Shown here in pieces: positions 1,030 through 64,000 of a stretch of 64,000 nucleotides of DNA. The DNA lies in NCBI GenBank assembly GCA_973895155.1, contig OZ316899.1:7691241-7755240 (forward strand), in the 5' to 3' direction. The notes under the pieces are model-generated. The model was given only the letters and a program-made list of their open reading frames with translations. It ran no database searches and had not been told where the DNA came from. Origin of the DNA: Marsupella aquatica (lineage: Eukaryota > Plantae > Marchantiophyta). Numbering within the stretch: position 1 is the first letter of the stretch; every line of letters begins with the position of its first letter. Both the position numbers and the translations under genes were made by a program.

Positions 1030-1044
1030 TGTGACGTCGATGAC

Positions 1045-1232
1045 ATAGAGGTTAGCAGACACGGATAGCGGATATGGATAGAGGTTAGCGGACACGGATA
1101 GCGGATACGGATAGAGGTTAGCGGACACGGATAGCGGATACAGATAGAGGTTAGCGGACAGGGATAGCGGATACGGATAGAGGTTAGCGGACACGGATAG
1201 CGGATACGGATAGAGGTTAGCGGATACAGATA
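1045..1232 (+). repeat. 33-bp tandem repeat (about 5.5 units) in the U3 of solo LTR B1
   Basis: GAGGTTAG recurs at 1048, 1081, 1114, 1147, 1180 and 1213. Confidence 0.93.
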
Positions 1233-1284
1233 CCGGATAGTGGCTAGTGGCTAGCGGATTTAGATTGGGGTTAGACTAAACCCG

Positions 1285-1510
1285 GGACAACGGATAGCGG
1301 ACAACGGATAGCGGACAACGGATAGCGGACAACGGACACGGACAACAGACACGGACAATGGATAGCGGACAACGGACACGGACAACGGACACGGATAGTA
1401 GACAGCAAGCACAGATAGCGAACATGGATAACGGACACGGACAACGAACACGGACACAGACAACTGACACGGACAACGGACACGGATAGCGGACACGGAC
1501 ACGGATAGCG
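1285..1510 (+). repeat. compound minisatellite of CGGACA/CGGACAA/CGGATAG units
   Basis: Read directly from the sequence. Confidence 0.9.
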
Positions 1511-3346: not shown

Positions 3347-4715
3347 ATCGATGACCGATTTCCCGACGAAGAGCTATTCATTGTGGAAATAGCTGATACA
3401 TGGTACCCTGAGATGTTGCAATTTCTCAGCACGTCCAGATTACAGCCAGGGCTAACCCGAGAACAAGCCGCAGTCTTTCTACGCAAGGTCAGACAGTATC
3501 AGTACATTAAGGGTGTGCTACACAGGTATGGAATCAGCAGCACAATTCAAAGGTGTTTGGAGAAGGGAGAGGTAAAACGAGTCTTACGGGCTATGCATGG
3601 GGAGGAAGCCGGCGGACATTTTTCTCCAGTAACCACGTCTACAAAGATATTAAATGTCGGTTACTGGTGGCCCACATTGCACAAAGATGTCTATCAGTTT
3701 ATCAAACAATGCGATCCTTGTCAACAAGCGGGGGGACCAAGGGCGTCCACAAGACATCCTCTGCACCCTATTCTACCTCTGGCACCATTCAAGAAGTGGG
3801 GTATTGATTTCATGGGACCTCTGAAACCATTGACCCATCCTCGGAGAAACAAGTACATAATCCTGGCCACGGATTATGCAACTAAATGGGTGGAGGCCAG
3901 GCTAACGACGAAGGATGACGCAATTACTACGGCTCGATTCATGTATGAGCAGATCTTCACCAGGTATGGAGCACCCTTAGAATTAGTTAGTGATAGAGGA
4001 ACCCATTTTCTGAATGATATAATTAGTCATTTAAATAAGCAGTATTTAGTTAGACATAGACCTACTACTCCTTACCACCCAAAGGCAAATTAATGGGTTG
4101 ACAGAACGAGCCAATGGGATTATAGGAAAAATATTAAACAAAACTGTAGCTCAGATCAAACTCGATTGGGATGATAAAGTGTTTGCTGCTGTTTTTGCTT
4201 ACAATTTAGCCTATAAATCCACTACCGGTCATACACCCTTTTTCTTAACCTTTGGGCAAGAAGCTCTGGTACCCATGCAACTTGAGATACCCACATTTCA
4301 AATTACAATTGAGGAAAGAGTCTCTGAGGAGGAAAGCCTAAAGGAGCGAGAATATAGATTAGAAGCTTTAGAAGAAGCAAGAATGATTTCAGCCGAGAGA
4401 GTAGAATATAGACAAAATACCATGAAGCAGCAATACGATAAAAGATTGAAACCAGTTAGTATCCACACAGGAGATCTAGTATTACTTTATGATAGTAGGT
4501 ATAGTAGGTTCCCGGGTAAACTTTACACTCGCTGGTTAGGACCCTTCAGAGTAAACATGAAGTTCTCCAATGGCTCCGTGCAATTGGCCAACACTACTGG
4601 AGAAATATACCCCGTTTGCATTCATTGCGACCGCCTCAAGAAATACTATATGGACGAAGATGAAGTTGTTTGCGAGGACGCTTCACAATTAAGTGGGGAG
4701 CTATGTGATGCCTAG
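3347..4715 (+). pseudogene. pol: gypsy integrase (HHCC zinc finger, DDE core, GPF motif), frameshifted near 4093
   Basis: H...GGHF...C..CQ; WGIDFMGP; SDRGTHF; TPYHPKAN/ERAN; RWLGPF in ORFs 3341..4093 and 4098..4715. Confidence 0.93.
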
Positions 4716-6088
4716 CCAGGAATCATTAGGCCAGTTTAATTAGTAAAATCAGGAGTGTACCGTAGGAAACACCTTAGTATAGTAACAAAAATAGGGAAAT
4801 ATAAACAATTAAGGGTGACTATGGAACCCGAGCCGAGGCCAAAAGTAAGGACGTCGGGGGAAACACGATTAGGGTTAGGGAGTGCTAAGTACTGGCGGCT
4901 ACTAACGGGAAGGAAGACCAGCCAAGGGGGGGGGGTAAGGACCGAGCGAAAGGACTGGCGGCTCATTTGCAAACACAAGCCAAGCGGACGACTACGGGAG
5001 GCCAACTGCTGTCCGCTGCTCAGGCAAGCACTCGGGGTGGAAGCAGATACCGACGATCAACTCAAGAGGGGTATGAGCAACGTCAATCAAGCTGCTCATT
5101 TTTGGGGATGCCTGTTAGAACGGGTAATTGAGTACATTGGGACCTACCAGGAAAAGAATCAGAGAGAGCGGCTTGAGAACGGCAGGAGTGGAGGGCCGCT
5201 CCTTTTGAGGAGGGCGGACGTGGAGGGAGGAGGCGTGAGTGGGCAGGGCGGGCTCAGATCTCCAAGTTTAGAATTAGGATCAGGACCAAGGGGCGGCCCT
5301 GACACTTAGCTTAGTGGGATTGCGGATCCACTGGTAAGAGCAACACTTGTGCTTGTGCCTTACTGTACATAGGTAGATTACAGTTAGGTAGATTAGGCTT
5401 ACGCTGCAAGGAATTAGGCGGATCCACTACCAGGATAAGTACTTGGGCAGCGGGGAGTTCAGGGCCTTCTTCCTTAGCAAGTTTTTAGTGCACCAACATG
5501 GCTGGGATCAAGTAGTTAAAGAAGCTCTCGGTTAGTTATACTGTGACCCTTGTGTATATTCATGTTTCCTCATACCTAAGAAATGAATAGAGTTGGCCTC
5601 ACGGCTTAGTTCGCAGATCTTGTATATGAGAAGTACTGTTTGTATGGCAAGTGCATGGTATAACTCAATCAGAAGGAGTCATTTTGCTATTTGTGTGTCG
5701 CATTAACTTGTTTGAAGATTGCCCGCATCAACCAAGAAGGGAGTAAGCAAGGTAGTAAGAGTTGGATGTGTCAAGCTTAGAGAGGTCTTAGCGGCTTACC
5801 CAAGCTAGTTGGGGATCATTCCGGCGGCGGAATCCAAACATACCTAAAGGAAAACCGAGAGAGGAGGACAAGGGAAGGCCGAGAATAGGCCGGCTACGTA
5901 TCTCATGACCCGATGAAGGATCTGTCCAGTATATGTGAGTAAAATGTTAATAGCAATAGTAGTAGAAGGAAGTTAGCAGCGTCCCATGCCGCTAAGCCGC
6001 AAAATCGGCCTTGCCAAGAGCGAAACCTGCGGGAATCGGCTTGAGCAGAGGGGTTTCTTGGGTTTAGGGAGCCATGGGACGCACCACA
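4704..6088 (+). mobile_element. 3' LTR (1385 bp), short relative of LTR family C
   Basis: Follows the PPT. The start TGTGATG..GCCAGGA and end GGGACGCACCACA resemble the 29806 and 34407 ends. Contains the shared TTCCG-N4-CGGAA motif at 5819. Confidence 0.85.
4755..5309 (+). pseudogene. truncated remnant of the LTR-encoded ORF (N-terminus only)
   Basis: GMSNVNQAAHFWGCLLE...TY matches GMNTVNQAGKFWGCLLE...TY in ORF 29994..30440. Confidence 0.7.
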
Positions 6089-29805: not shown

Positions 29806-32800
29806 TGTGATGTCGTGCCAGGATCACGAAGTACTTAGTTAAGCCTAAAATAATGGCTAAATAAAGATTAGGTAGATATAATTAGGGAGTTATAAAGATC
29901 GAAGCCGATTTCAATATGTTCGGGGGAAATTGTGATGGGATCTGATCCAACGGTCGCGATTAAGTGGGATTAGGATTATGACCTAATCAGGGCTTGATCA
30001 CGCAAGCCATCAGGAGGCGGCTTCGTAAGGAGGGGACCGACACTCTGTACACTAGTGCAATTGCTTGTTCGATCAACCTAGCGAATCAGCTGCCGATCGA
30101 ACGGGGGAGGTGGTTTGAGAAATTGCGCAGGTTCTTGGCATTCGGTGGAATGAACACGGTGAATCAGGCAGGGAAGTTTTGGGGCTGTTTGCTTGAAGAA
30201 GCAAGGCAGCTGATACCTACGTATGAAGACGTTGAGCCGGAGCACGCAGCCAGAGAACGAGCAGAGCTTGCACGATTGTGGGGAATTCACAAATCGGCAT
30301 TCGTAGATACGGAGGAGGTATTGGAAAAGTTCTCGTGGACACCCATCAGTGTGGAGCTTGACAAATTGCTAATTCGGGAGAATAAGGTCGTGGGATCAGG
30401 GAGGCAATCAAGAATGTCGGGCAACCACTTTGGGAATTGAAGGGTCACACTGCAAAGTGGACGAAGGCAGCTATTCTTGGGGAGTATTCAGGCACTGAAG
30501 AGATGAAGCGCAAGGGAGGTTCGGCATCTGCAACTCCAGCAAAGCGAATAGGTTGGAGAGACCAATCAAGATGGAATCCGGGCCAATTAGAGATCGGGCT
30601 GTAGAAGATAAAAACATGACAGGGTGGGCAAACAGGTTACCTGCCGATTTACAATTACAGTTCGCAAGAGATGAGGATGAGGTCTTCAGTGCCGTTCAGG
30701 ATAACAAATATGCAGGATATATGAATGACACTGGGTTGGAGGGCTTTGTCAGGTTGCCCTGGAGAATGGTAGACATACCGGATGAGGATCTGTTGGACTT
30801 CGTGGGATGCTGGGAGGCTTCTTCCAACACAACGCTGCTGTATGGAAAGGTGTTCGAATTAACTCCTGCGCTTATCGAAGCCGTGTTCGCTTTACCAACA
30901 GGAAGGAAAACAAAGGTGGAGCAGAGGAAGACGTTGCCGGACGACCAGTTCAGGTCATTTCTAGGGCCTTCCACTAAGAATGGGTTTTTTAGGAATCAAT
31001 GTACCAACCCACATATAGGGCAGCTGATTGATTTCCTGAGAGTCACATTGCATTGTACCTTGCTGAGAGCAGAAATCGGCAAAGCCCAGGTATTTTTGGT
31101 AGAGAATATCGATGCAAGCCGAGACTACAACGACTATCTCTTAATGCAGTTAAAGAAGGCATTAAACGAAGAGAAGCAGAGCATTGGGGAGGGAGCGGTA
31201 TCCAGACTAGGGTACCATCTGCAATTGCTTTGCCGTTATGCAAGAAGCTAGTCTTTTGCACCAGTGTTGCCTATACAGGAGCGGATGCAGATCACTGCAC
31301 CACTTGAGGAAGTGGAGGAGGACGAGGAGCCTCTTAACATACGACGCCACGGGAGGAGGTCGGCAACACAGGCAACATGAGAACGGGAGCATTCCCCTAT
31401 CAAGGAGCCAGAGGTAGTAACATATGATGTAGTGAGAAATCCGTTACGCCGGCCTACTCGCAATAATCCATATGCAGGCATCCAGTTGGTCGAGAGGAAG
31501 ATGACTGCCGAAGAGAGAAAGAAATATGACGAGCGAATGGATTCGGAGACAGACGAGGAGGTAAGCCGAGGCCAGGAGAGGCCGGTTGTAAAAGCTTCTA
31601 ACAGAGCCCAAGTGAACGGATTCATGGTGGAAGGTCAACCAGCTGCAGCCCAACAATTTTCAGAGGAGGAGATTGGGGGCTTTGGAGGAGAGGTCGGCAT
31701 GTTAGGTAGTCAGGTCAATGTGGATGATTACGACGACGACTATGTCGATCATGGGGAGAGGCCGGTCCCAGGAGTTAGAACGATGGGAAGGTTTTGTAGA
31801 AGACTTCCCGCGGTCTTCTATGGCAAACCGGAGGACCAGAAAACGCCAAAATCTCCTCCACCAGATGTGACGCCATTGGAATTCGACAAGATGAAGGAAG
31901 CTTAAGCCGGGCTACATGAGAAGATTAAGGAGTGGGGGACCCAGAATGCAGAACACGAATGCCAGCTACTAGGAGGTGAGTGGCCAGAAGGAATAAGACG
32001 GCTTAGTGAGAGGCAAGCCGAACCTCTCACTAACTTTGACCAATTACGCGCTGAAGCTTGGGAGAGACAACCTCGATGGCAGATGCCAGTATCACCTGGG
32101 AGGTCAAACTATGCAAGAAATCGGGCTAAGGAGTATGGAGACATGTGTGGACTCTTAGCCTTAGAAATCTTCGGCAACGAGTTGGAATCCGGGCCATTTC
32201 TTAGAAAAGAAATGGCTGATCAGACGAGACTGGAGGAGGCAATGACATTGGAGCGATTGAAGAAGGAGGAAGTAATCGCTCGGCTTCGCTCCATGGAGGC
32301 CGAAGTTGCTAAGACAAAGTCTGCTCAACCAACTCAGCAGGATCTCTTCGCTAGGCAGCAGGAATTGGATGTGGCAAACAACCAATTGGATAACCAGCAG
32401 ATCAAGGAAAAGTTGACAAAGATAGAGCTAGAGTTAGCCGATTCAAAAGTAGAGGTACATGGTTTAAATCGCCAAGTTGAGAGGCTCAGAAAGACGGCTA
32501 AGGAGCAGGCCACCCAGAGCGAAAAGGCCTTGGTAGATGCCCAAAGGAAGTATGATAAGTTACTCGACCGGTTGGAGACCATGCGTGAAAAGCATGATGA
32601 GGCCATGTGCACGGCGGCCAATGATCACCTAAACCGGGTTCAACAGATACGCAAGGAGCTTCAAGAGGAGCTAACCAGGACAAAGCAGGCATGGACGAAT
32701 GAGGTCACAAAACTAGAAGGTATCAACGACTCCTTGAAAGCAGCCGTAGATAAGCAAGAGTTGGAGATCGTGCAGATCTTAAATGAGGAGTTGAAGACGG

Positions 32801-34407
32801 CCAAGGCCAAGATACTACGGCTTAACGATGAAGTTGAAGACGTATCTCAAGAATTGGAGGATGCCAAGGATAAGATGATCGGGCTGCAGAGGCGTGCCGA
32901 CAATCAAACGCAGAAATTGAAGAAGTATGTCGAAGCGGGATATGGGTCACCAACTGAAAGGCTTCTCGACAGTAGTATGGTAGGCGGAAATATAGTGAAG
33001 CCGAAGCCAAAGCCAAGCTCTCTGTTGTCAAGTGTGACTGGGGGCAAAGCCATGCAGTTGGTGGCAGACTTGGCAAAGACGTTCATGGGGCCAGGCGATA
33101 ATAAAGTTAAAACCCTTAAAGCCACTCCGGAGGAAGTCGAGAGCATGGCTGCTCACATTTGTGGTACTGTGGCCCTGAAGGCAGCGGTGGTAGAGGTAAG
33201 TACTGCGGATCAACTTGGAGCTGCGGTAACAGGTTTAGACAATGGTACTGCTTCTATGGACACACAGAACGTGAAACCGTGGGTTATTGAGACCAAGCGC
33301 ATCGGGGAAAAGGCTTGGATTGAGGAAATTAAGGCAAAGGCTCTCCAAGCCGTTTCCCAGGAGGATGCGGATGCAAATGCAGATGCCGATGCCAAGACCG
33401 ATGCCGGGGCCGGCAAAACAGAAGCCGAAGTGGTCGGGCCAGGGCCGATGGCAAGAGAAGGTGCAGAGTCGGAAGATTCGGACTTACCCCCGGTCATCTG
33501 ACAATTAAGGAGGGCCAGTCATCGGTTGGAAGGAGGACGTGGCGGCAGGAGAAGGGCTTGGGCCAGAAGGGCCCGGCCGTTGTAGGATGGGACATGGCAA
33601 GTAGCGCCCTGTTGGCTTAGATAGTAGTAGATGCTCGGTTCACACAGGGTTCCGGGCTATTCAAGTTTTTAGGTGATAGTTTTTTTTAGGATTATCGCGG
33701 TGGAAGGCCATGTGTGGTGGTTAGGATCTCTGTTGTTTTTTTTGAAAGCGCTGCAAGGATAAAAACCTTGGCAACGTGGTTTCAGGGGCTTTTTCTTAGT
33801 CAAGGCTTTAGTGTTAATCTGTATTGTTGTAAACACAGGAAGCTCTCGGCTAAATCTAGACCGCAGGGTATCAGTAAACCACCAATTCCCTTGGATTTCT
33901 GAGCAATTGTTTGAATTGAGTTGGCTTCGTTGCATAGTTCGCAAATTCTTGCCATCCAAGAAGTTGAGTGTTATGATATCTGTTGCTTGATCGATTAAAG
34001 TCAGATAGGGTGAACTGTTGAGCAAAATACAATCGCATTGCCTTGATTGGAGACTGCCCAAATCAAACTCTGAGAGAACAGTGAGGATTGAGAGTGTTAG
34101 TCAGTGAAGTGTGGGTTGAGTCAGTCTGAAAAAGACCTTCAACCGGCTTAAGAAATTAAGCCGTAGAGCTACATTCCGAGGGCGGAATACAAATATACCT
34201 GAAGAAGTTAAACAGGAATTAGGTGTCTCAGTTGTGCACAATTCACAAGCCCAGTGAAAGAATCGGTCCGGTAAGTGTGGACCCAAGGAGAGTATCGCGT
34301 TTCCAAGCTGAATAGCTGCCGTAAGGAAAGAGGACCGACATAACCAAGTGGTTTATGATCGGTTGAGGGTAGTTCTCGGTGTTAGAGGTCTTGGGAACCG
34401 TGCCACA
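29806..34407 (+). mobile_element. giant solo-type LTR, family C (4602 bp), carrying an internal gene; flanks do not match (CCTTT vs AGTTT)
   Basis: TGTGATG...GTGCCACA termini similar to LTR 4704-6088; shared hairpin motif at 34174; unrelated pol fragments on either side. Confidence 0.78.
29994..33501 (+). pseudogene. LTR-encoded protein, family C (about 1150 codons, several stops): PMD/Transposase_32-like domain plus long coiled coil
   Basis: ORFs 29994..30440, 30553..31251, 31432..31905 and 32083..33501. YMNDTGLEGFVRLPW...DLLDFV...LYGKVFELTPALIEAVFALPTG...NGF aligns by eye with the family A protein. Confidence 0.75.
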
Positions 34408-37400
34408 AGTTTCTTTGTACTCCATGCAGCGTCGTAGTTTCCTGTTAACTCCTTCCTTGTGTAAGTGGCCCCGTATCATGATGTACGGCCCCGCTTTTTG
34501 GAGGAATATGGCGGCAACTTCCTGGTTGGTGCCATCAGGGAGACTTTGCTACCTTCTCCTGGTCCACTTCAATACCCCGTTTGGATACCCAATGGCCGAG
34601 AAGCACTCCCTCTTCTACCCCGAAAAAACACTTGCCCGGGTGGAGCTTAAGGTTAACCTCCCGGCATCGCTGTAGAGTACGTCGTAGGTGTTTGGGGTGC
34701 ATGGCCACAGTTCCAAAGATGGCAAAGTCATCTATAAATATTTCCAAAAACTCCCGTAGGAAATCATGGAAAATATTCATCATGAGCCGCTGGAACATGG
34801 CCGGGGCGTTACACAGCCCGAACGGCATCCTCCAAAATGCAAATGTCCCCCACTCGGTAGTGAACGTGGTTTTTAGCTGATCCAAAAGGCGGATCCAAAT
34901 CTGATTGTAACCCAAATAGCCGTCAAGGAAGGTTTAGATTTCATTCCGAGCTACCATATCCAAAACCATGTCCGTGAAGGGTAATGGGTAGTGGTCCTTT
35001 TGGGTAACATCGTTCAGCTTACAGTAGTCCTAATAGATGCGGATCTTGGGTTTCCCTTCTGTGCCTCCCTTTTTTGGCACGATGACGATGGGAGATACCC
35101 AATCACTCGCCATTATCGGGTAAATGATATTCGCGGCCAGTAAATGATCGATTTCTTCTTTTACCAAGATTGAATATCTCGGGCTCATACATCGCTCGTG
35201 CTGCCGTACCGCGTGTGCGCCTAGGTTCAGGTCGGTCGTGCGTTCTCCTAGCTTGGGAGAGACACCCGTCAAGTCATGATGGCTCCATGCGAACACATCC
35301 TCATACTCCTTGAGTAGTGACTGAATGGATTTCTCGGCCTAAGTTGAACATCTTATCCATCCCCATGGTGTACTTCCGGTAGTGCTCCTTCCTGATGACT
35401 TCTACTTGATTACACAAGCCCGGGTCCAGGTTAGCGCCTAGCTCTGCTAAGCGGACTCCTCCGTACGTCGGAGGGGTTGGGTTCGAGTCTGGTGTTGCAT
35501 CCGCGTCTTCTTCCATTGGGATAGAAGGTCCCAGGATACTTGCTTCCGATGCTTGAGCCCCAAAATCTTGGCTGAGGTTGTGGTGGCCTTGCTTGCTGAG
35601 GGTTTGATGGTAGGCATAATGGCTTCAGCTCCCTACTTAGCTGGAGCTGCATTTTGCGTGTCCTTTGGGCTGAGACTTTGAGCGGGTTGCACCTCCGTTG
35701 AGGGGTTAGAGGAACTCGGGTTGAGGTTGCACGCGTCTTCCTTTGGGTAGTTCATGAGGTGGGTGTCTCGTGTTGCCTCTATCCCAAAAACATCTTCCTC
35801 GGAAACAGATGAGATGAGCTCTATCATGTTGAGCTCTTCTTCCTCTAAGATCTCTAAATCATATTCCTCCGGCCCCTGTGGTGTCTCTCCCTGATAGTCA
35901 TCCAAAGCCCATGACACTCGCACGGTGGGTGTCCCAAATCACAACTCTTTCTTTCCCCAATCCGTGACTACATTGCCCCCGTACAGCCATGGCCTCCCCA
36001 GCAGAACTGGATAAGAGGATGGTCTTACCGGCCTCATGACTAGGAAGTTGAGGTAGAACTCAATGCCCCCTACAAGAGTGAGCACCCGTGTGAGCGTGCC
36101 CAAGGGAAGGACCCGTGCCCCATTTGCCAATCTGATGGCCCGGGCCGTGGGTTGATACGTGAGATATCCCAGTTTGATTGACGTTTCTTCAGTCATGATG
36201 TTGACTCCTGCGCCGCCATCGACCAGGACCATCTTAATGGTGCATTGTTTATCTCAATAGATATGTCCGGCGCCCCTAGGTCTTTGCAGATCATGTTGCA
36301 ATTTGCCGTCCCTACCCGGGGTAGCCGCCTCGTCATCGACCCGTGAGTAACTGCCTCAGTTGCTATCGATATTGAGGGTTATTGTGCAGTAATTGCCCTA
36401 CTATTGCCGTGACCGGGCAACTTTTCACGTCTTGTTGGATATTGTAGTCCTCCTTCTTCTCTTCCTTGGGACGGTGCTGGGCTTCCTCCTGTTGCTTCTC
36501 TTGCTCATGTCGTTGGGCGGCTTCAGCTGCTTTGATATCCTTGTTGATAGTCTTTTGGTATTCGCGTGCTTCATAAGCCTCCAACTGCTTCTTAACCAAT
36601 TCTTTGATACGGGGGAAGAATAGCTTTGGGTCATCTCATCGGTAATCGTCATCCTCCTCTCGGGAGATTTCTACTGCTGGCTGCACCGGGGTAGTATCTT
36701 GCTTCTTCCGACGCTTCTCTTCCTGTTTCTCTTGCTTTTGTTCGGCTCGAGTCGCCACATGGTAGCACTTGACTTCGTCCGTCAGGTTTGGGTGTTCCAC
36801 CACATCCACCAGGTTTACCCATTCCGTGGTATCATCTTGCCATTCTACAATGATCATTTGTACGACAGCATCGTTAGTGCAGGACCTCCTAGGGCCGGCC
36901 TGGCTGCGCTTGCTCGGGCAGCGATCACCAAGGGGCAATTGGCCATGGAGCGGGCCTCAGTTTTGCGAACTTGACATAGTGGAGTGCCCCGGCCATCTCC
37001 CTGCCGTCTTGGCTTGGTGCATTCCCTGGCAAAGTGGCCCGACTTCTCACAGTTGTAACAAACTGGGGATCGCCAAATCCCGGGTTTAGGAGGAATGCTC
37101 GGGTTACTGATAACCTGGACATTCCTTCCATTGTTTGGGTAAGGGTAGGCCGTTCTACCAGCTAAGTTGCGTGGACCCATCGTGGAAATCTGGTAGACAG
37201 AATCTGTGGCGTCTTCGAAGAAGAACTCGATGGACTCCGGTTCTGGCCCCGGGCTGTCAGCGTCCTCCAATTCCACCTGATGGACCCTATTCTTCCATCG
37301 CGGGCATTCTTGCACCACGTGCCCAAATTGGAAACACTTGGAGCACCATGCATGTGCTCGGGTCTCGGAAGGTTTCTTTTTCTCCACGGGCTTGTCCGTA

Positions 37401-38632
37401 AGGTGTACCGACAATGCTTTGAGATGATCCATAATTTTGTTGAGCTTGTCTGCTTCAGTAGCCTTTGGATCGGGGATCGTTTGTCAAACACAAGGCTTGA
37501 CCTTCTCTTCCTTCTTAGCTCGCCTCTTCTTCTTCTTGCTCTGGCTCTCGCTCTCCGAATCACTTCTTGATGAATTGGAAGTGGAGGATCCGTTGGTTGA
37601 ACTCAAATCCGAACTAGATTCCGTCTCCGAACTAGACGAGGTCGAACGATGTTTCTTCTTCTTCTTCTTGCGTTTCTTCTTCTTCTTGTCGTCCGGTTTG
37701 GAGTCACTGTCACTGAAGGTCTCATATTTGCCCTTATGTTGGCGTGCCCGTTGACTTTGCCGAGAGTTATAAGTGGACTCCCGGTAGGTTTTGGCGCACG
37801 CTATGGCCGCTTGTATTGAAATTGGATTATTTTGGCGCACCCAAAATTGCATATTTGTGGGCAAACCGTGGAGAAACCACGTAAGCTGGAGCGCATCCCC
37901 TGGCCTGGGCCGGATCTTGGCGGCAAGTTTCTGAAACTTCTGAATGAACTTTTGCAAGGATTCCTTCTTTCCCATGCAAAGTTGGCCGATCTTTAATAAA
38001 GAACACTGCTCTGATCCAATGGCACAAAACTCTTGCAGCAACGCCGCTTGGAATTGTGCCCATGTAGTCCCGGGTGGCAGCAAGTTGTACCATGGACGAG
38101 ATTCTCCCCGCATCACACCGGGGAGGATGGTTAGCTTAATGGCATCTTCTCCATTGGCCTTAGCAGTGGCTTCAAATTCATCCAACCATTCATCCGGATC
38201 GTCCCCATGACGCCCTTTGAAAGGTCGATAATGAAATCATGACCGTTGTGATACTTGTGGGGGAGCTTGGGCAGCGTGGGCCATAGCCGGTGGGGCTGCT
38301 GCCATTGGTACTGCTAGCGGTGGCGCAGCAAGGACCGGAGTAGGACCGGCTGGTCCGGACCCCAAAGGTCCCGATGGTATGTTCATTCGTCGAGGCAATA
38401 GCAAATCCTCTGAGCTTGAGGATTTGGAGCTTGTTGTGGCTGCACTTTCTTGTTTGCTGGTCAATCTTCTCAAGTAAGCGGCTTGAGATCGGGTGACGGG
38501 CATCTACTCGTATAATGACAATGGTTAGTAACAAACTGGGGCCAGGTGTACCTCACCCTGGTGCATTCGCACATGTCTCCCCTCTACTATAAGTAGAGTG
38601 CCCCCTCCATCTAGCGCCAAAAACAAAGGCTA
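34408..38632 (-). mobile_element. internal region of a gypsy element: gag with CCHC knuckles, protease, RT; RNase H deleted; integrase truncated at 34408
   Basis: ORFs 37484..38185 (gag), 36854..37432 (CSKCFQFGHVVQEC, CYNCEKSGHFAREC), 35939..36232 (LVDGGAG), 34535..34915 (FIDDF). Confidence 0.92.
38601..38619 (-). promoter_or_regulatory. primer-binding site complementary to the 3' end of tRNA-Asn
   Basis: Minus strand TGGCGCTAGATGGAGGGGG vs plant tRNA-Asn(GTT) 3' end ...CCCTCCTTCTAGCG-CCA as recalled (1 mismatch); 13 nt downstream of the LTR end at 38633. Confidence 0.75.
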
Positions 38633-41600
38633 TGTCACGTCGTCAGCCTAGGCCTTAACCCGGGCTTTGGCTTAGACAGGCACATCCTTCGTAAATATGA
38701 GGGTTTGGGTAGGGAGGGACGCAGGAAATGCTCCTAACTCACGTAAACTAGCGCTAAGTGCGCTTATTGTTATGTACAGACACCTCCTAGGTATAGTTTG
38801 TGTTCCACCGCCGGAACGTACCTTAGTCAACACGGGGTTGACCCTGGATTACGGACTTCTAGGCCTTTGTGTTACCGCCTTCGATCCGGATCCATTAGTA
38901 CAAGTGCTCAACCCCGGCTTGCAACCCCATATCCGTAACCTGCACCCCATGCATGCTTGGCATAACGTGTTCGGCCCAGCATTGATACTTGCACACGAGA
39001 CTCATACATGCATTTACACATAAACATAAATCTCGATTTACACGAAGGAATTGAGGGGAAAGGATTTCATTCATTTATGATCATACATTTACGATTGGTT
39101 GACCCGACACCTCGTGAACGCACGGGCCCAAGGCCGAGGAGTATACACTACAACGGAGTGAGCTCTAGTTGTATACCCTCCCCTTGGCGCTCCGGTACTT
39201 CACCAAGTTCAAGACTCCCCACGTGTACCGCGAATGGCCAACTTCTGAGTCTAAAATCCCCCCCCCCCTTGCCTCTACCAGGGGGCTGCTAAATACTAAG
39301 GGTTGAGAACCAGTCTGGCCTCGTGCCCGAATCTACGCTAACTATATCCTCGCTAAGCTGGTTACGGCTTGTCCTATTAGTCTAACCTATTCTATACAGG
39401 CTGGCTAATGTGTCAGCGCCGCTATCTTCTGGTCGGCACTTGTCCTAACAGCCTGTTTTAGCTACTCCTAGTTCCATTCTAAGCCTAACCCTTCGCTAAT
39501 GCCTGGTGCGCTTTCCAGAGCCGTCCGAGTGGGAGCGGCCATCCCGCTGCCTACGGAGCCTGTCGTTGTCCATCTTGAGGAGCTGGATTTGGTCCAGCAG
39601 AGATTCGTTCTCTCGCTTCGCTGCGTCCGTCTCCTCCGCTGCCTCCTGGCATGCCTCTTCCAGCTGCTGGGCGTCGCTCGTCAGCTTGCCCACCATCTGG
39701 TTTTGCTTCTCGGCTTCGGTTTGAAGCCGTGCTACTTTGGCCTGTAGGGCGGCTATCTCCGCAGTGTCACGCTGGGCCCGCTCTTCGGCCTCCTCCAGGC
39801 CTTTCTGCCAGATGACAGTTTGGTTCTTCAAACTGTCAACCTAGGTCCGGAGCCGTGCAATCTCGGCCTCCTTCCCAACTTTGGCCTGTTTTCTGGACCC
39901 TCGGGCTCAACCAAGTCTTCTACCGCTTTGACTTTTGCTCTCGGCCCGGCCTGGTTGATCGTGTCTAAGGTTGCGATTACTGCCTTGTCTGGTACCACTT
40001 TGGCCACGGCTACGGCTATGGCTACTTGTGGAGGTGGGGTGGGTGAGGCCTGCATGGTCGCCAGACTTTGGGCCTCGGGTTGGGGCCGTCTGTCCAAGGC
40101 CGTGAAGACTCACCTAGCTGGGACCAACTTAGTTATGTTGACCCGGGGAAGGGTTCATCGATCAAACCGGGCGTACCACTCAAGAATGATCTCGATGTGG
40201 CTTGCAAAATACGCCTTCCCGCCGATGTATAGCGACTTCCTTCGCCGCTCCATCTCTTCATGGAACTTCTTAGCGAAGTACGACGCCCACTTCCTAGGTC
40301 GATAGTTCTCGACCTGGATAACCTAGGCAGCAGAGATCTCACCCGGGGTTCCATCATGTGGAGGGCGTACCTCTGGAACTCCAGTCGCTTGGCTATCTCG
40401 GGGATGAGGCAGGTCCTCATCACAAACCCGTTGTCCACTGATCCCTCGGAGGGAAAACTCGAGGATTGGTACTTGGCTCCTTTGCCCCCGGGAGCCCGTG
40501 ATTTGACTCGGTGATCTCCCTCGGGTAGCCCAAAGATCATCCTAAGCCGCTCCACTATGAGGGACATATTCCTCCCCTGCAACCGAGTATGTTGATGGAC
40601 ATCATCATAATTCTTGACAAATTCTGTCATGTCCTCCCCGTAGTACCTGCAGGTGTTCCAGGGGAGAGGGGCGAGGTGCTCAAACCCCTGAGTCTTCAAG
40701 TACACCGCATGTTTGGGGTGGAGGATGTTCTTATGCACGTTGTCCCCCATGCGGTGCATTGTCACCTTCGCTGCAGCTACCGTGGCCATGGGTAACCCGA
40801 ATACAGCTGCGGGTTCCTTCCTCTTCTTCCCCCGAGACTGGCTCGGGGAGGGTGACACCTCCCCATCTTCTCGATTGGGTATAGGTAGTGCCACCGCCGT
40901 TAGTATTGGGGCCGGGGCGGCTACGGTCACCGTGTTGTCTGTTGGAGCCGCTACTCGGGTCCGGGCCTGGGGAGGGGGCGATGTAGTCCCGGATCCCTGA
41001 GTGTTTGCTCTTCTGGGTCGCCTAAACAGGGGTAACGTAGCCTCTTCATTGTTGTTGAGATCTACGGCGTTGATGATGGATCTCACCTGTATGGGCGGGG
41101 CGATTGGGTTTGGCTAGGGGCTGAGGCTGAGCCTGAGCCTGAGGCTGAGCTGGTGCTGGTGCGGGCACGGGCACGGCTGGGCTGGCACCGGTGGTTGATG
41201 GTACGGTTGCCATGAAATTCTGCAGGTGCCGGTAGAGGTTTTCTGAAGCAAGTGTAGACGCCCTTGTAGACTGGGTAGTGTTGGACTTGCTGTTGATGAT
41301 GTCCCGGACCTGAGCGGGGATGTGGTCAAAGTAGTGCCGTTGTAAGTTGATCGTGCCTGGGATATTGAAGACCACATCCGGAAGCCAAAGCAAGGCTTCC
41401 CAGAAACTGATATATTTGCCTCCGTCAAAGAAGTACCCTGATATCTCTTTGGGTCAATAAAGCTCGCTCTAGGACGGGTAGTCAAAGTTAAGGAGATAGT
41501 GATGGCGGCCTGCTAGGTAGATGGCTCTCTCGTACTCGCATTCAATCTTGTATCATCGCGTGTTGGCGTATTTTAATGAGTCGGCCAAGTGCAGCCCAAT

Positions 41601-42130
41601 AGACAGGAACTACGTCCAGAATCGCAAGGCCGAACTAGAAAGGATCGTGTGCGACATTCAGGGGAGATAGAAGGCGACTAAGGATAAGCAAGAGAACTGG
41701 GGTCGAAGCTGGCGCGTGAACTGAAGAACTGGTGCACTGCAAAGGATCGGCCCCCTTTTTCTACCCTGAGAGCTCGCTGATCGCCCAACGCCTCCCCGTC
41801 GCTTATAGGCCGAGCCTTTCACGCTTGCAGTGTACCGGCCACTCCACCGGTCCGGGTCAGCACGTGTCAATGGCCGCCTCCCAAAGTTTGTTATACGGAC
41901 CCGAGGGGGAAAGGTGAGGGCCTATTACATGCTCGCAACCCGGGCGTGCAAATGGCAACCCGCCGCCAGCCTGAACACAAACGCCCCTTATTGACTAATG
42001 ATTTCCTACTCATAATGGCTACCTAAATACTCTCATTATGCTAATAATTATGGCCTAAGATACCCCTAAGGCGCGTGCTAAGCGTCGTTAGGCCGAATCA
42101 CTCATTACCCACCATACCGGCGGCGTCACA
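38633..42130 (-). mobile_element. 5' LTR, family A (3498 bp), containing a degenerate long ORF
   Basis: TGTGACGCCGCC...GACGTGACA on the minus strand; directly upstream of the PBS and gag; colinear with 59285-63285 except for a deletion of about 0.5 kb. Confidence 0.92.
39496..41657 (-). pseudogene. LTR-encoded protein, family A (stops, frameshifts, internal deletion)
   Basis: ORFs 41046..41393, 40133..41086, 39828..40097 and 39496..39831 are homologous to the 855-aa ORF; ATG (MSHTIL) at 41657. Confidence 0.88.
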
Positions 42131-44596
42131 CCGGTATCCCACGCAATTTGTTGGGAGAAGTCCCCCAGCAACCCATTCAAAAATATGCCCGGTGCAAAGA
42201 GTTCGTGGTACTCCAGATTATGCCCATTTGGGTTCGGGCAAGGATAGACCCCAGCTCGCGCGGGAGTCGGAGTGCTAACGTCTAGCCCTTGAAATATGAC
42301 AGCAAAGGGGGTTGGGTTTGCACGGGATGCATGGTTCTCTTGGACAGCCGTGGAGGGTATCAGGGGTCTCTGTAACCGCAGTCTTGGGCCCGGGGCTGGC
42401 TTTTGCTAACCCAACTTTGATGGTCGCACTGGCCTGGTTGATGGAATCCAGGGTCGCGATAATTGCATCATCTGATACAAACGGAGGGACAGCAGCGGCT
42501 GGTTGTGGGGCCAGGGTTGTGGGCCTCACGACCACCGGACTTCTGGCCTTGGGCTGGGGTCGCCTTTCTAGGGCCGGGAATACCCACCGTGATGGGGTTA
42601 GCTCGGGCTCGTTGAGCCAAGGGAGACTTTGGCGGTCAAAACGGGCATACCACTTGATGATGATTTCAATGTGGCTTGCGAGGTACGCCTTCCCGCCAAG
42701 GTACAAGGTCTTGCTTTGCCACTCCATCTCCTCGTGGAACTTCTTGACAAAGAAAGAAGCCCACTTCCTAGGCTGGTAGTTTTTGACCTGGATGACTTGG
42801 GCAGCAGATATTTTGCCCCTTGGTTCCATCATGTGGAGGGCGTACCTCTGGAACTCTTGTTGCTCCGCTATCTCCGAGATGAGGCATGTCCTCATCAAGA
42901 ATCCGTTGTCCACTGCTCCTTCGGTCGGGAAGCTAGAGGACTGATACTTGGCTCCCTTGCCCCTGGGAGCTCGTGATTCCACCCGATTTACTCCTTTGGG
43001 TAGGCCAAAGATCATCTTGAGCCGTGCTTGGCTGAGGGACATCACTCTTCCATGCGCACGAGTTTGTTGGCGGGCCTCGTCAAAGTTCTGGATGAACTCC
43101 ATCATATCCTGCCCATAGTACGTGCTAGCATTCCAAGGGAGAGAGGCAAGGTGCTCAAACCCTTGGGTCTTCAGGTAGCATGCATGCTTGGGGTGGAGAA
43201 TGTTCTTGTGGACATTCTCCCCCATGTGATGCATGGTCAGCTTGGCCACCAATACTGTGGCCAAAGGCAGCCCGGATAGAGCCGCGGGTTCCTTTCTCTT
43301 CCTACCCCAAGACTGGTTCCCGGGGTGACTTGTAGAGGGGGACATCTCCCGTTCCTCTCTATCGGGTGGCGGCAGTGCTACTGCCATAAGTATTGGTGCT
43401 GGGGCAGCCACTGTTACCGTGTCATCTACCAGAGCTGCCACTCGAGTCCGGGCTTGTGCGGGTGGTGACGTGTTGCCCGGCTTGTGTGTGCTCGCCCCTC
43501 AAGATCGCCGGTGCAAGGGAGGGTGAGCCTCTTTGTCCTTGGAACTGATGTTTACTGCGTTCACCACAGATTGTACCCAGAGGGGTGGTGCGACCGGTGG
43601 TGGAGATTAGCTTGGCTGAGGCCGAGGTGGTGTTGGTGAGGGCACCAATGAGTCGACAACGGTTGTAGCTGGAGGAGGCGCCATAAGATTCAGCAAGTCT
43701 GAGGGGAAGCCAAGTGAGGTCAGGAAGGATGTCTTGCCCGGATCTGCATTACCAAACTGATGGTTTATGGAAGCCTGAACTTTGGCAGGGATATGGTTGA
43801 AGTGGTGCCGCTGCAAGTCTATCGTGCCTGGGAGTGTGAAGACCTTGTCTGGAAGTTGAAGAAGTGCTTCTTGGAAGCCAAACTTACTTTAGACCGTCGA
43901 AGAAGTATTCACAGATCTCGTTGGCTCGACAGAGCTTGCTTTGGAACGGAAGGTTGAAATCGCCGTTATAGTGAGAGCGCCCGGCTAGACGGATGAGTCG
44001 CTCGTACTGCCTTTTGGTTTCATACCGGCGCGGATTAACTTTGGCCAACAACTTTGCTAAATGATTTTTGACGGATAGAAATTGAAGCCAAAACCGAAAA
44101 GCCTAACTGGACATAATCATGACAGACATACAAAAAACGGTGGTGGAGGATTAAGGAGCAGATGAGCAAGCTAGGGTCAAATTTGGCGCGAGGAGTGAAG
44201 TGTTGATGCTAAGCAAGAGAACGGCCTGCCTTTTATACCCTGAGAGCTTGTTGGCCGAATGGCCCCTTCCTCTTTCCGATAGGCCAATCCTTTCACGCTT
44301 GTAGTGTACCAACCACTCCGCAGGTCCGGGTCAGAGTGTGTCGGCGAGCCGCCCCCTTGAGTTGTTATACGGATCCAAGGAGGCATCCCTACACGCTTGT
44401 AACCCGGTAATATGAATGGCGCTCCACCGCCAGCCCGAGCGTAAATGCTCCTTATTGACTAATGATGTCCTAGTTGTGATTACTACCTACTTTAGTGTCG
44501 TTGTGCTAATAACTACGGACTACTATGTCCATATCGCGCGTGCTAAGCATGGATTAGACCGGATCACTCATTAACCGTCGTGCTGGCGGCGTCACA
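42131..44596 (-). mobile_element. 5' portion of an older, diverged family A LTR with its ORF (ATG about 44129), interrupted at 42130 by a younger family A element
   Basis: Terminus GGCGGCGTCACA at 44596; ORF 42275..43441 contains HPKHACYLKTQGFEHLASLPWN. Confidence 0.88.
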
Positions 44597-49142: not shown

Positions 49143-49504
49143 CACTAGAAGAAAACATGGTCTTTTATGACCAACTGCCCAATGACATATGGAAATGCAT
49201 AAATGACGTAAATCCTCAATGACACAAAATGAATGACCAAAGAATGATTGTCCAAAATGACCAATAGACTGAAATGACAAAATGATCGCTTTTGCGTCAT
49301 TTTGTAAAATGTATGTAATGATTGATATGACCAAAATGACACAATTTTCTTAATATGCTCAATTTAGACATAGGTCCTAAATGCCGCAACCAATCACAAC
49401 AATGATAACTCATTGTTTAGCACCATTGTCATTACTTTGGACAACGATTCAAATGACCAAAAACCTATTTGGGTGATTTTGGACAACGGTAATAAATGAC
49501 AAAA

Positions 49505-55709: not shown

Positions 55710-56149
55710 CAAAAAACCTATTTCCGTCATTTTAACCAACGGTGCTAAATGACTAAATCTATGGTCAATCAAAAAATTAAGATATATCAGTGTTTACAAC
55801 AACATACAGTCATTATGTACTTGTCTCATAAAATGACTAAATCTAGTGTCAATCAAAAAATGTTGACAACAACATACAGTCCTTATGGACTTGTTTCATA
55901 TATGACTAGATCTAAGGTCAATCTAAGAATTAGGATATATCAGTGTTTACAACAACATACAGTCATTATGGACTTGTTTCATAAATCACTACTTGTAGAG
56001 TCAATCTAAAAATCAAGATATATCAGTGTTTATGATAACACATTGTCATTACAGACTTGAGTCATAAATGACTGCTTATTGAGTCATTAAGGAATCCTGG
56101 ATATATCAATGATTAAAAATACTGTATAGTCATTGCGGACACAGGTCAT

Positions 56150-59284: not shown

Positions 59285-62200
59285 TGTCACGTCGTAGGCT
59301 TCGGCCTTAACTCAGACTTCAGCTTAGACGGGCACATCCCTTGTAAATCTGAGGGTTCGGGCAGGAAGGGAAGCACGTAATGCACCTTATTCTCGTAAAC
59401 TAGCGCTAAGTGCGCATACTGCTAAATACGGACACCTCCTAGGTATGGTTTGTGTTCCGCCGCCGGAACGTACCTTAGTCGATAGCAGGATCGACCCCGG
59501 CTTAAGGGCTTCTAAGCCTTCGTGCTGTCCGCCTTCGATCCGGATTCGATGATACAGGTCCTCAACCCGTGCTCGCAACCACTTACCCGCAGGCTGCACC
59601 CTGTGCACGTCTCGGGTAGTGCGTTCGGCCCGGCGCTGCCACCCATATACGAGAAACCCACACACATATGCGCACACATGCATACAATCTCGATTTACAC
59701 GAAGGAAAAATGATGGGAAAGGATTTTACTACAAAGGGAACATATGCGTACACTTAGTTGACACGACAGCCCTGGAATGCACAGGTTCAAGGCCAAGGGT
59801 GCACACTACAACGGAGCCCGGCTCCGCACTCGCCCGACGAGCTTAGTCCTACCCCCTCCCCTTGGTACTCTGTCATTCCCAGAGGTCGGGACTCCCCGCA
59901 TGTCCCGCGGATGTCCGACTCTGAAACTAAAAACCCCCCCTGCCTCTACCGAGGGGTGCACTAAATACTAAGAGCCGAGGAACGGGGTGTCCTCACACTG
60001 AAGATTCGTTGACTAAGGTCCTAACTAAGCTGACAGTCAGGCCGGAAAATGGTTGTGTCTTATTAGAAGATCCTAATTTACGCAGGCTGGACAGCAGGGC
60101 AGCGCTGCTGTACCTAAGGCAGGTGCCTGTCCCAAGAGCCTGACTAAGCCAATCCTAATCCTAATCTATTCCTACTCCGCCGCTAATGCCTGGCACGCTT
60201 GCCAGAGCCGCCCGAATGGGAACGGCCATCCCGCTGCCTTCGAAGCCTGTCATTGTCCGCCTTGAGGAGCTGGACCTGGTCCAGCAGAGATTCATTCTCT
60301 CGCCTTGCCGCGTCCGTCTCCTCTGCTGCCTCCTGACATGCCTCCTCCAGTTGCTGGGCGTCGCTCGTCAGTTTACTTGCCAGCTGGTCCTGCTTCTTGG
60401 CCTTGGTTTGGAGCCGCGCCATCTCGGCCTGCAGCGTGGCTATCTCCGTCGCGTCCCGCTGGGCTCGCTCCTCGGCCTCCTCCAGGTCTTTCTGCCAGGT
60501 GACAGCTTGTTTCTTCAAACTGTCAATCTGGTTCCGGAGTCGTGTAATCTCGGCCTCGTTCCCAGCTTTGGCCTGTTCGGCTAGGGCGGTAAGAGCGTAC
60601 GCCTTTGCTAACAACTCATCGGCGGCTGCAACCTTGGGTCGTAGTTGCAGAAGCTCAGCCTCTTGAGCCGCCACTTCGTTCTTTAGGTACACGGACTCCA
60701 CCCGGTACCGCTCTATCCTCTGAAGGGCCTCCGACTGGGCCCGACCTGCCTTTACGGCGGCAACCAACTCCTGATTGAAGAAACAGGCTACCTTCCGGGC
60801 CATGAACTCCCTGGTATCTCGGGCAATTTGATGAGAGAAATCTCCCAGAAGCCCGTTCAGAAACGTACCCTGTACGAAGAGTTCCGGGTGGTCCAAGTTG
60901 TGCCTGTCCGGATTTGGGCACGGGCAGACATCAACACGCGCAGGGGCCGGGGCAGTGACGTCCAGCCCTGGGGACATAACGTTGGAAGGGCCTGGAGTGT
61001 CCTCCTGCAGCGATGTCCGGTTCTCCGGAATTGCCACCGGCGGGTCCTTGGGAGACCCGGGTTCGGGTAAGACCTCTGCCGTACCAACTTCTGTACTTAG
61101 CCCGGCTAGTTGGGTCGCATCAACGGTTGCGACGACCGACCCCTCCGGCGCCTCCTCGGGTACGATTACAGCTATTTGTGGAGGTGGGGTGGGTGAAGCT
61201 GGCATGTCCACTGGACTTCGGGCCTCGGGTTGGGGCCGTCTCTCCAATGCCGGAAAAACCCACCTAGCTGGGACCAGCTTTGTAACGTTGATGCGGGGAA
61301 GGGTTCGTCGATCAAACCGGGCGTACCACTCAAGAATGATTTCGATGTGGCTAGCGAAATACGCCTTCCCGCCAATGTACAACGTCTTCCTTCGCCGCTC
61401 CATCTCTTCATGGAATTTCTTAGCGAAGTACGACGCCCATTTCCTAGGTCGATAGTTCTCGACCTGGATAACCTGGGCGGCGGAGATCTCCCCCCGGGGT
61501 TCCATCATGTGGAGAGCGTACCTCTGGAACTCCAGCCGCTCAGCTATCTCGGGCATGAGGCAGGGCCTCATCACGAACCCGTTGTCTACTGATCCCTCTG
61601 AGGGAAAACTTGAAGATTGGTACTTGGCCCCCTTGCCCCCGGGAGCCCGTGATTCGACTCGATGATCACCTTCGGGTAACCCGAAGATCATCTTGAGCCG
61701 TTCTTCTGTGAGGGACATATTCCTTCCCCACAGCCGAGTCTGTTGACGTACGTCGTCATAATTCTTGACGAATTCTGTCATGTCCTCCCCGTAGTACCTG
61801 CAAGTGTTCCAGGGGAGAGAGGCGAGGTGCTCAAATCCCTGAGTCTTCAGGTACACCGCATGCTTGGGATGGAGGATGTTGCTGTGAACGTTTTCCCCCA
61901 TGCGATGCATCGTCACCTTGGCTACGGCTACCGTGGCCAACGGTAACCCGGATGCAGTGGCGGATTCCTTCCTCTTCTTTCCCCGTGACTGACTCGGGGA
62001 AGGTGATACTTCCCCATCCTCCCGATCGGGCCTGGGGAGTGCCACTGCGGTTGGTAACGGGCCCGGGGCGGCCACGGTCACCATGTTGTCTGCTGGGGCC
62101 GCTCCTGGGGTCAGAGCAGGGGGTGGGGACGATATAGTGTCGGCCCCCTGCGCGCTTGTTCCTCTGGGTCGCCTGGTCAAGGGTGGGGTAGCCTCGTCGT

Positions 62201-63285
62201 CATCGCTAAGATCCACAGCGTTGATGATGGAGCGTACCTGTGCTGGCTGGGTGATAGGTGGTGGGGTTTGGCTAGGCTGCGGCTGAGGCTGAGGCTGAAG
62301 CTGAGGTTGCATGGGCACGGGTACGGGTACGGGCCCGGCTGAGTTGGTCATGTTGGTTGATGGCCGAGTTCCCATGAAGCTCTGCAGGTGCTGGTAGAAG
62401 TTCTCCGAAGCGAGTGCGGACGCCCTTGTCGAACGGTTGGTACTGGACTCGCCGTTAATGACAGCCCGAACCTGGGCAGGGATGTGGTCGAAGTGATGTC
62501 GCTGCAGGTCGATTGTACCCGGGATATTGAAGACCTCGTCCGGAAGCCGAAGCAATGCTTCCCAGAACCCGATATATTTGTCTCCGTTGAAGAAGTACCC
62601 AGATACCTCAGCTGGTCGGTAAAGCTCGCTCTGAGACGGGTAGTCAAAGTTAAGGACGTAGTGGTGTCGTCCTGCTAGGCGGATGGCTCTCTCGTATTCG
62701 CGTTCGATCTCGTATCGGCGCGGGTTGGCGTGTTTCAATGAATCGGCCAAGTGCCTTCCGGTAGATAGGAACTGCGTCTAGAATCGAATGGCCGAGCTGG
62801 AGAGGATCGTGTGCGACATTTAGAGGAGATAGTAGTGGCGACCTAGAGAGAACGAGAGAGCTGGGGTCGAAGCTGGCGCGCGGACTGATGGACTGGTGCA
62901 CTACAAAGGGTTGGCTCCCCTTTTATACTTTGAGGGCTTGTCGATCCCCGACGTCTCCTCGACGCCCATAGGTTGAACCACTCACGCTTGTGGTGTACCG
63001 GCCACTCCGCCGGTCTGAGTCAGCGTGCGTCAGTGGCCGCTTCCTTAAGTTCGTTATACGGACCCGAGGGAGGGGCCCCTCCACGCTCGTAACCCGGGTG
63101 TGCGAATAGCGACCCGCCGCCAGCCCGAACCTGAAGTCCCCCTTATTGCCTAATGATGTCCTACCCCTAATGATTACCTAAATACTGTCATTATGCTAAT
63201 AATAGCGGCCTAAGACCCACCTAACGCGCGTGCCGAGCGCAGTTAGACTGAATCACTCATTAACCACCGTACCGGCGGCGTCACA
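59285..63285 (-). mobile_element. 3' LTR, family A (4001 bp), containing a near-intact long ORF
   Basis: TGTGACGCCGCC...GACGTGACA on the minus strand; immediately follows the integrase and purine tract AAGCAGGGAG; same ends as the PBS-adjacent LTR at 38633-42130. Confidence 0.93.
60183..62819 (-). CDS. LTR-encoded protein, family A (878 codons from ATG 62819, one TAG at codon 14, then open to 60183): N-domain, P/Q-rich linker, basic NLS-like motif, PMD/Transposase_32-like domain, coiled coil
   Basis: ORF 60183..62750. The upstream in-frame MSHTILSSSAIRF*TQF matches MSHTILSSSALRFWT in the 41657 copy. Contains RGKKRK, QGFEHLASLPW...DMTEFVKNY...GRNMSLTEERLKMIFGLPEG and a heptad-rich C-terminus. 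Confidence 0.88.
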
Positions 63286-64000
63286 TAGCTCCCTGCTTAA
63301 TTGTGAAGCGGCCTCGCGAACATCGCTATCGGCGTCGTCATCTTGATGGTGGTCCTTTTTAACACGATCGTAGCTGATTCGCGTGGGGAGTAAATCGCCG
63401 GCATACGTCGCAAGCTCCAAAGATCCGTTTCGGTAGATCTGATTGACAAGGAAGGGCCCTAACCACCGGGTATGCAGCTTCCCTGGAAACTGCATGTACC
63501 TACTATCGTACAGAAGGACTAGATCGCCTGCCACGACGTCGACCCTCCGTAGTCCTTTGTCGTGCTGCTTCTTCGAAGTTGCCTGTTTCTTCACGGTGTG
63601 TCGAGCTGCCAGTAGCCGTGCTTCTTCCAAGGCTTCAATCTGATAAGCTCGGTCTGACAGACTTTCAGATTCAGGTAAGCGATCCCGAATGCTGACCCGT
63701 GGAGTGTGCACTTCAAATTCGACGGGCACCAACGAATGTTGGCCGAACACCAGAAAGTACGGGCTGTGACTCGTAGTAGTTTTGTAAGCTAGATTATACG
63801 AGTACACCGCCGCGTACAACTTATCATCCCAATCCGTTTTGTGCGCAGCTACAGTTTTGTTGAGGATCTTCCCAATGATACCATTTGCTCTCTCCGCCAT
63901 CCCGTTGGCTTTAGGATGATATGGGGTAGTCTTGCGGTGCTTGACTAGGTAACGCTCCGTAAGCTGGGCTATGGTGTCATTGAGGAAGTGGGTTCCACGG
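63253..64000 (-). CDS. pol: gypsy integrase C-terminal half, reading into the 3' LTR; continues off-window
   Basis: GTHFLND, TTPYHPKANGMAERAN, RWLGPF; close paralog of 4098..4715. Confidence 0.93.
   Translation of the reverse strand, partial: RGTHFLNDTIAQLTERYLVKHRKTTPYHPKANGMAERANGIIGKILNKTVAAHKTDWDDKLYAAVYSYNLAYKTTTSHSPYFLVFGQHSLVPVEFEVHTPRVSIRDRLPESESLSDRAYQIEALEEARLLAARHTVKKQATSKKQHDKGLRRVDVVAGDLVLLYDSRYMQFPGKLHTRWLGPFLVNQIYRNGSLELATYAGDLLPTRISYDRVKKDHHQDDDADSDVREAASQLSRELCDAAGTVVNE

Follow-up and report, generated by a model that had tools for sequence, protein, structure and literature searches.

We analysed a 64-kb window of genomic DNA (the whole stretch considered here, 64,000 nucleotides of contig OZ316899.1, forward-strand positions 7,691,241 to 7,755,240) and found that a Ty3/gypsy retrotransposon in it carries, inside a 4-kb long terminal repeat (LTR), a coding sequence of 878 codons that has been under purifying selection. 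The place of this gene in the LTR and its reading frame can be read directly from the window. We propose, with slightly more confidence than doubt, that it is the LTR gene of an Athila-like element and that its product, a protein with a predicted VANC/PMD fold, binds the DNA of its own LTR and keeps it free of silencing. Statements referenced by PMC or bioRxiv number draw on the portions of those sources that were available to us.

The 4-kb unit is a long terminal repeat

The main features of the two elements concerned, all on the minus strand, are as follows; D, E and F denote related families of the window that are described below.

59285..63285, minus: LTR copy A, a 3' LTR of 4001 bp bounded by TGTGACG...CGTGACA
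38633..42130, minus: LTR copy B, a 5' LTR of 3498 bp with the same termini and a decayed open reading frame (ORF)
42131..44596, minus: LTR copy C, 5' part only, cut by B, recognized by self-comparison of the window
60183..62819, minus (read from 62819 to 60183): ORF of 878 codons and a stop, making up 65.9% of LTR A
63253..63999, minus: C-terminal part of integrase, whose frame passes through the polypurine tract (PPT) and stops inside LTR A
63286..63302, minus: PPT adjoining LTR A, with nearly the same junction in element E
38602..38619, minus: primer binding site (PBS)-like site starting with TGG, 13 nt past LTR B
34408..38503, minus: gag, protease-like and reverse transcriptase (RT) remnants of element B, with RNase H deleted, cut at D

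An initial annotation had reported that one TG...CA-bounded unit occurs both after integrase and PPT and before PBS and gag, and had taken it for a true LTR; both statements were borne out. In the self-comparison, copies A and B aligned in two blocks (81.8% identity over 2143 columns and 74.4% over 1303 columns), and their homology stopped at identical TGTGACG...CGTGACA termini. Copy A starts right after the integrase frame and PPT, with unrelated repeat DNA beyond its CGTGACA end, so that the same sequence stands 3' of pol and PPT in A and 5' of PBS and gag in B, the arrangement that defines a Ty3/gypsy LTR, here seen across two different elements. A and B come from separate elements, of different subfamilies, given the position of A's 3' end upstream of B and their synonymous divergence (dS 0.54). 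Three solo LTRs of family F with the same termini have 5-bp target site duplications (TSDs). Summed contig depth in four public runs from two studies fell at both boundaries of LTR A and was 3.5–5.6 times higher over the ORF than over integrase (2.8–7.3 times for the non-coding LTR ends), which we use as a consistency check only, since contig depth is not copy number, the comparison is based on copy A alone and one run may be the source of the window.

It is very improbable that the unit is instead something other than an LTR, with the ORF as an internal 3' gene flanked by short LTRs or as part of a separate element inserted beside PPT and PBS: the window holds no element flanked by two copies of it, the PBS lies 13 nt from the LTR end against the 0–5 nt used by Neumann et al., and the terminal inverted repeat is imperfect (6/7), but comparison of the two ends of A gave no direct repeat (the best spanned 11 bp, E 0.33), which an ORF between short LTRs would require, and the TSDs of the solo LTRs, the recurrence of the PPT junction in E and the depth pattern all speak for an LTR.

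The LTR-borne coding sequence is under purifying selection

The size given by the initial annotation, about 880 codons or two thirds of the LTR, proved accurate, but every copy in the window is interrupted. Copy A has a single premature in-frame stop at codon 14 (62778–62780), copy B has eight stops, frameshifts and a 482-bp deletion, and copy C has four stops. The codon-14 stop appears private to copy A because nearly all family depth in runs X2–X4 shows another letter at 62779 (run X1 was mixed, at low depth). The stops of copy B are all C-to-T or G-to-A changes, the kind expected of methylation-associated decay.

The three copies nevertheless retain the peptide despite many nucleotide changes, as had been claimed, and a check named beforehand confirmed this. 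Whole-ORF ratios of nonsynonymous to synonymous divergence (dN/dS, Nei–Gojobori) were 0.22 for A–B, 0.16 for A–C and 0.18 for B–C, computed on 703, 645 and 558 of the 878 codons, respectively, after gapped and stop codons were dropped; the three pairs are not independent, and A–C is near saturation in places. Constraint varied along the protein, with the lowest values in the core domain (0.08–0.10), followed by the N-terminal domain (0.14, A–B), the coiled coil (0.22, A–B) and the linkers (0.24–0.49), and shifted-frame controls gave 1.36–3.15.

The core domain is predicted to fold like VANC and PMD proteins

The protein can be divided into the following parts.

62445..62819, minus: N-terminal helical domain, about codons 1–125
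61305..61949, minus: core domain, codons 291–505, with a predicted VANC/DUF1985/PMD-like fold
60225..60662, minus: predicted C-terminal coiled coil
61968..61979, minus: KKRK, a word before the core that resembles a nuclear localization signal (NLS)
60189..60200, minus: KRAR, a second NLS-like word

The best structural match of the predicted core was VANC21 bound to DNA, language-model features placed the core in the DUF1985 cluster at 0.90, and weak Atlas leads pointed to PMD, Transposase_32 and ATHILA. We therefore predict that the core folds like VANC and PMD proteins. The PMD/Transposase_32-like domain of the initial annotation thus stands by fold and language-model features but not by profile: the Pfam hidden Markov models (HMMs) for PMD (PF10536), Transposase_32 (PF20167) and DUF1985 (PF09331) gave no match above cut-off in A, B, C or D. 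Transposase_32 appeared at E 0.059 in 1 of 29 members, among the matches listed (25 of 39 families). The coiled coil and NLS-like motif noted earlier were recovered, the former as a prediction from its heptad score and sub-threshold coiled-coil Pfam matches, the latter as the KKRK and KRAR words, whose role in nuclear localization is putative. The N-terminal domain (homologs P0001 and P0007; mean model confidence, pLDDT, 73.5) had no clear match among known folds.

A HMMER search of 1.84 billion representatives returned 38 homologs at E ≤ 0.001. Ten clusters were looked up; four were unnamed proteins of Calypogeia fissa, which makes a liverwort host likely, and the rest were unnamed Logan, JGI or NCBI records. 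One homolog, P0039, known here as a protein alone, is unbroken at 906 aa and has the N-terminal domain, the core (45% identical), the coil and the same KRAR end. Word-indexed protein searches gave no match (one covered only proteins of 1587–4530 aa and was uninformative), sequence searches against solved structures gave weak coiled-coil-type matches only, and a viral fold library yielded nothing credible.

Promoters and the place of the gene within the LTR

Three words are relevant to the question of where transcription starts.

62921..62927, minus: TATA box (P1), 108 nt 5' of the ATG, at LTR position 359 (62927), kept in C and altered in B
about 59961..59970, minus: AGTATTTAG word about 215 nt past the stop, a candidate second promoter or binding site, kept in B
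about 63178..63187, minus: second copy of AGTATTTAG, kept in B

We suggest that the gene is transcribed from P1, its own promoter inside the LTR, and on balance we favour an arrangement of two promoters in which the genomic RNA starts at the second, within the 0.9 kb that follow the ORF; the gene would then lie in U3 (the unique 3' region of the LTR). The initial annotation had assigned the ORF to U3 outright; its location inside the LTR holds, but U3 is not established, given a TATA box only 108 nt 5' of the ATG. A less probable arrangement, which we would still take seriously, has P1 as the sole promoter, with the ORF in R or U5 (the transcribed LTR regions), where it would precede the PBS and form the first cistron of the genomic RNA. 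The gene would then resemble an Ogre ORF1 taken up into the LTR from the 5' side, and the strong-stop cDNA would be about 3.6 kb long. The canonical TATA box, the initiator-like word and CT-rich leader between it and the ATG, and the retention of P1 in C speak for this arrangement; in addition, neither TATAAA nor TATATA occurs in the 0.9 kb after the ORF of A, and a cluster of TGTA words about 430–500 nt past the stop looks like a plant 3'-end signal. It is harder to reconcile with the ORF-less family F, in which a TATATAG aligns with the post-ORF AGTATTTAG of A and no sequence similar to P1 was found, with the position of integrase next to the PPT, as expected if a former gene between pol and the 3' LTR had entered U3, and with the need to translate gag behind a 2.6-kb cistron. 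The R/U5 arrangement is compatible with the same protein function.

Candidate target words and a conserved LTR-end motif

In the non-coding portions of its element, VANC21 binds a short word arrayed in a single orientation (PMC5735166). An unbiased ranking of 5-mers from non-coding LTR ends (families A, D and E) placed TTAGG first, with 30 sense and 5 antisense occurrences in the 5.6 kb of nine non-coding LTR segments, compared with a rate of 0.61 per kb per strand elsewhere in the window. The word is absent from the 5' end of C and near expectation in F, and its best tiles were borderline after correction. TTAGG also resembles the plant telomere repeat, so that host telobox factors are an alternative. 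We treat the word as a lead only. The first seven letters of AGTATTTAG are those of the VANC21 target YAGTATTAY (PMC5735166), a likeness that is probably due to chance.

Near the LTR end, a 6-bp hairpin with a CAAA..ATACCT motif is common to A, B, D and E, with a variant in F.

59441..59468, minus: hairpin motif of A
38789..38816, minus: hairpin motif of B
34174..34200, plus: hairpin motif of D
5819..5845, plus: hairpin motif of E
about 3010..3045, plus: variant in F

The hairpin has a four-base loop followed by AAA..ATACCT and is kept in four families, with pairing in 30 of 30 cells, one two-sided change and G–U swaps; its folding energy was not unusual (z −0.9 to 0.2), and covariation was no better than in shuffles (65/500). 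The hairpin might serve in packaging or priming; on the opposite strand, the ATACCT portion of the motif can also be read as a splice donor. Neither this motif nor relatives of the protein were found in the metagenome and viral contigs scanned.

The host elements look Athila-like

Element B has a gag that starts about 115 nt beyond the PBS-like site (Retrotrans_gag, E 1.6e-4; zinc knuckle zf-CCHC, E 4.6e-9), followed by protease-like sequence and RT. Its PBS-like site is, we presume, of the tRNA-Asn type. Both elements are related to element E, with 69% identity for the RT of B and 57% for the integrase of A. In E the linker between RNase H and integrase is continuous across an inserted solo LTR (F1), leaving no aRH (A and B are without this region), and the integrases of A and E end at the PPT, leaving no chromodomain. 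In both A (63253–63302, minus) and E (4660–4715, plus) the integrase frame crosses the PPT and ends in the LTR with a conserved ASQLSxELCDA. TSDs in the clade, seen for family F only, are 5 bp long. The lineage table gives Athila a 5-bp TSD and a PBS for tRNA-Asp or tRNA-Asn, and Phygy and Selgy a 4-bp TSD, a tRNA-Trp/Ala PBS and no extra ORF. The absence of aRH in E, the 5-bp TSDs of F and the presumed tRNA-Asn PBS thus make the host lineage look like an Athila-like, non-chromovirus Ty3/gypsy lineage. The 5-bp TSDs and the large extra ORF do not fit Phygy or Selgy, and the 4-bp NCGN target preference of Phygy was likewise rejected by the TSDs of family F.

How the protein may act

Under the anti-silencing model that we favour, the protein would enter the nucleus, oligomerise through its predicted coiled coil, bind short words that lie on one strand in the non-coding ends of the LTR, for which the TTAGG and AGTATTTAG types are candidates, and act in cis and in trans against DNA methylation or Polycomb marks. 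A full element would then hold the gene twice; a solo LTR would still provide the factor for the family and perhaps for the ORF-less relatives E and F as well. This idea, put forward in the initial annotation as a nuclear anti-silencing factor, gains support because the best structural match of the modelled core is DNA-bound VANC21. More tentatively, at somewhat less than even confidence, we suggest that a bryophyte Ty3/gypsy clade moved a VANC-like gene into its LTR and thereby united gene, promoter and binding sites in a 4-kb self-activating module that survives solo-LTR formation.

The protein could instead bind chromatin or DNA to another end, tethering the integration complex (for example, to centromeres), acting as a plain activator or limiting its own element, which we consider unlikely, roughly one chance in four. 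The fold match implies DNA binding at most, the conserved N-terminal domain lacks a known fold match, MAIN and MAIL1 promote transposon silencing in Arabidopsis (PMC5418596), and centromeres of a liverwort are enriched in Phygy, Selgy and Tat domains (PMC12885004). Against such roles, VANC, whose function is anti-silencing (PMC5735166), is the only transposon-encoded member of the fold with a tested function in the literature surveyed, the protein is separate from integrase, and the same-strand motif excess in the non-coding ends resembles VANC targets.

Related families and other features of the window

29806..34407, plus: D, 4.6 kb long and probably an LTR; it represents a distant family, has LTR-like ends and carries the hairpin motif near its end
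4704..6088, plus: E, a short 3' LTR of 1.4 kb after integrase and PPT, with no core and a fragment like the N-terminal frame of D (E 2e-7)
1030..3346, plus: F1, solo LTR that lacks the ORF, has the termini of A and B and is flanked by a perfect 5-bp TSD
19000 to 16563, minus: F2, a solo LTR like F1 in all these respects
48999 to 46577, minus: F3, a solo LTR like F1 in all these respects

Unit D has an ORF in pieces (29982–33501) with a homologous core (28% identity, E 2e-21) followed by a coil. Its flanks are unlike, a chromovirus-type protease on the left and the pol of B on the right, as if a pair of D-type LTRs had recombined and deleted the DNA between them, including the 3' end of B. Element E is almost identical to A in its integrase end, PPT and TGTGA junction, and its LTR seems to have arisen by deletion from an LTR that carried an ORF. 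We claim no homology between the N-terminal frame of D and E and the N-terminal domain of A, for which the hhalign probability, 1.5%, was not significant. The three F solo LTRs are 2.3–2.4 kb long and 92–93% alike; F1, which has long tandem arrays at its 5' end, is inserted in the pol of element E.

The window also holds ORFs of a probable DNA transposon region: at 20202–26085 (plus) a Ulp1-type protease (Peptidase_C48, E 1.5e-29), a lysine-rich ORF and a phosphatase-like ORF, and at 12793–15473 (minus) transposase-like ORFs, labelled by eye. A Ty1/copia element lies at 49497–55710 (minus) with 184-bp LTRs that are 96% alike, and tandem arrays occupy 9041–9768 and 55746–57800, repeating about every 158 bp and 580 bp, respectively.

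Comparison with known systems and implications

The closest comparison is with VANC (DUF1985, PF09331) of the VANDAL Mutator-like DNA transposons, whose VANC21 structures (PDB 9LNJ/9LNK) share the predicted fold of the core. VANC21 is also predicted to dimerise through a coiled coil (PMC13547354), and the same-strand short words in non-coding parts of its element (PMC5735166) have candidate counterparts here. The likeness is one of predicted structure: identity is 10%, the DUF1985 HMM is not matched, and the LTR-borne protein has an extra N-terminal domain. Unlike VANC, which has been described as specific to dicots (PMC13547354), it is encoded by a retrotransposon, with its gene in the terminal repeat, and likely has a liverwort as host.

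Among retrotransposons, the OTA extra ORFs (Ogre PMD, PF10536; Athila ORF-1/Transposase_32, PF03078/PF20167; Retand TRP28, PF04195, often with SMC-like coils) resemble our case in being accessory ORFs of non-chromovirus elements that combine a globular domain with a coiled coil, and 5-bp TSDs occur in the clade studied here. These ORFs lie internally, before gag or between pol and the 3' LTR (PMC6317226, PMC7264820, PMC11963269), whereas here pol adjoins the PPT, the ORF is in the LTR and there is no Pfam match at threshold. LTRs of up to about 5 kb occur in non-chromoviruses (PMC6317226). According to the portions available, the function of the extra ORFs, including Ogre PMD, is untested (PMC6317226, PMC7264820, PMC11963269, PMC11728184, PMC5418596, bioRxiv 10.64898/2026.03.20.713144). 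The host PMD-C proteins MAIN, MAIL1 and MAIL2 belong to the same fold family via VANC and act at promoter motifs against Polycomb silencing; unlike the LTR-borne protein, they are encoded by angiosperm host genes, and there is no sequence-level match. Coding sequence inside an LTR is familiar from MMTV sag, HIV nef and foamy virus bet/bel, sag being located in U3 with its own promoter. Those proteins and their hosts are unrelated to ours and the genes much shorter; here a whole 2.6-kb gene, its promoter and its probable 3' end lie in the repeat. We found no plant LTR encoding such a gene in the literature, where coverage of subscription journals was thin, and the available portions of the liverwort genome papers (PMC12885004, PMC9985172, PMC13182070) and a meeting report (PMC12859917) make no mention of such LTRs.

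One extra ORF of plant Ty3/gypsy elements is now tied, through its predicted structure, to VANC21, a proven anti-silencing factor, and gene, promoter and candidate target words lie together in one 4-kb unit. Such ORFs come to be annotated as unnamed host proteins, as in Calypogeia fissa. The VANC/PMD fold, so far described from angiosperms, would extend to early land plants, which bears on whether hosts or transposons had it first; if the more tentative reading, a gene moved into the LTR of a bryophyte clade, is right, the fold served transposons long before dicot VANC genes arose, and this would be the first retrotransposon-encoded, sequence-specific anti-silencing system. An LTR that is itself a gene also alters the meaning of solo LTRs: recombination that removes gag and pol would leave the regulator behind, and the module would outlive solo-LTR formation, the host's main route of retrotransposon deletion.
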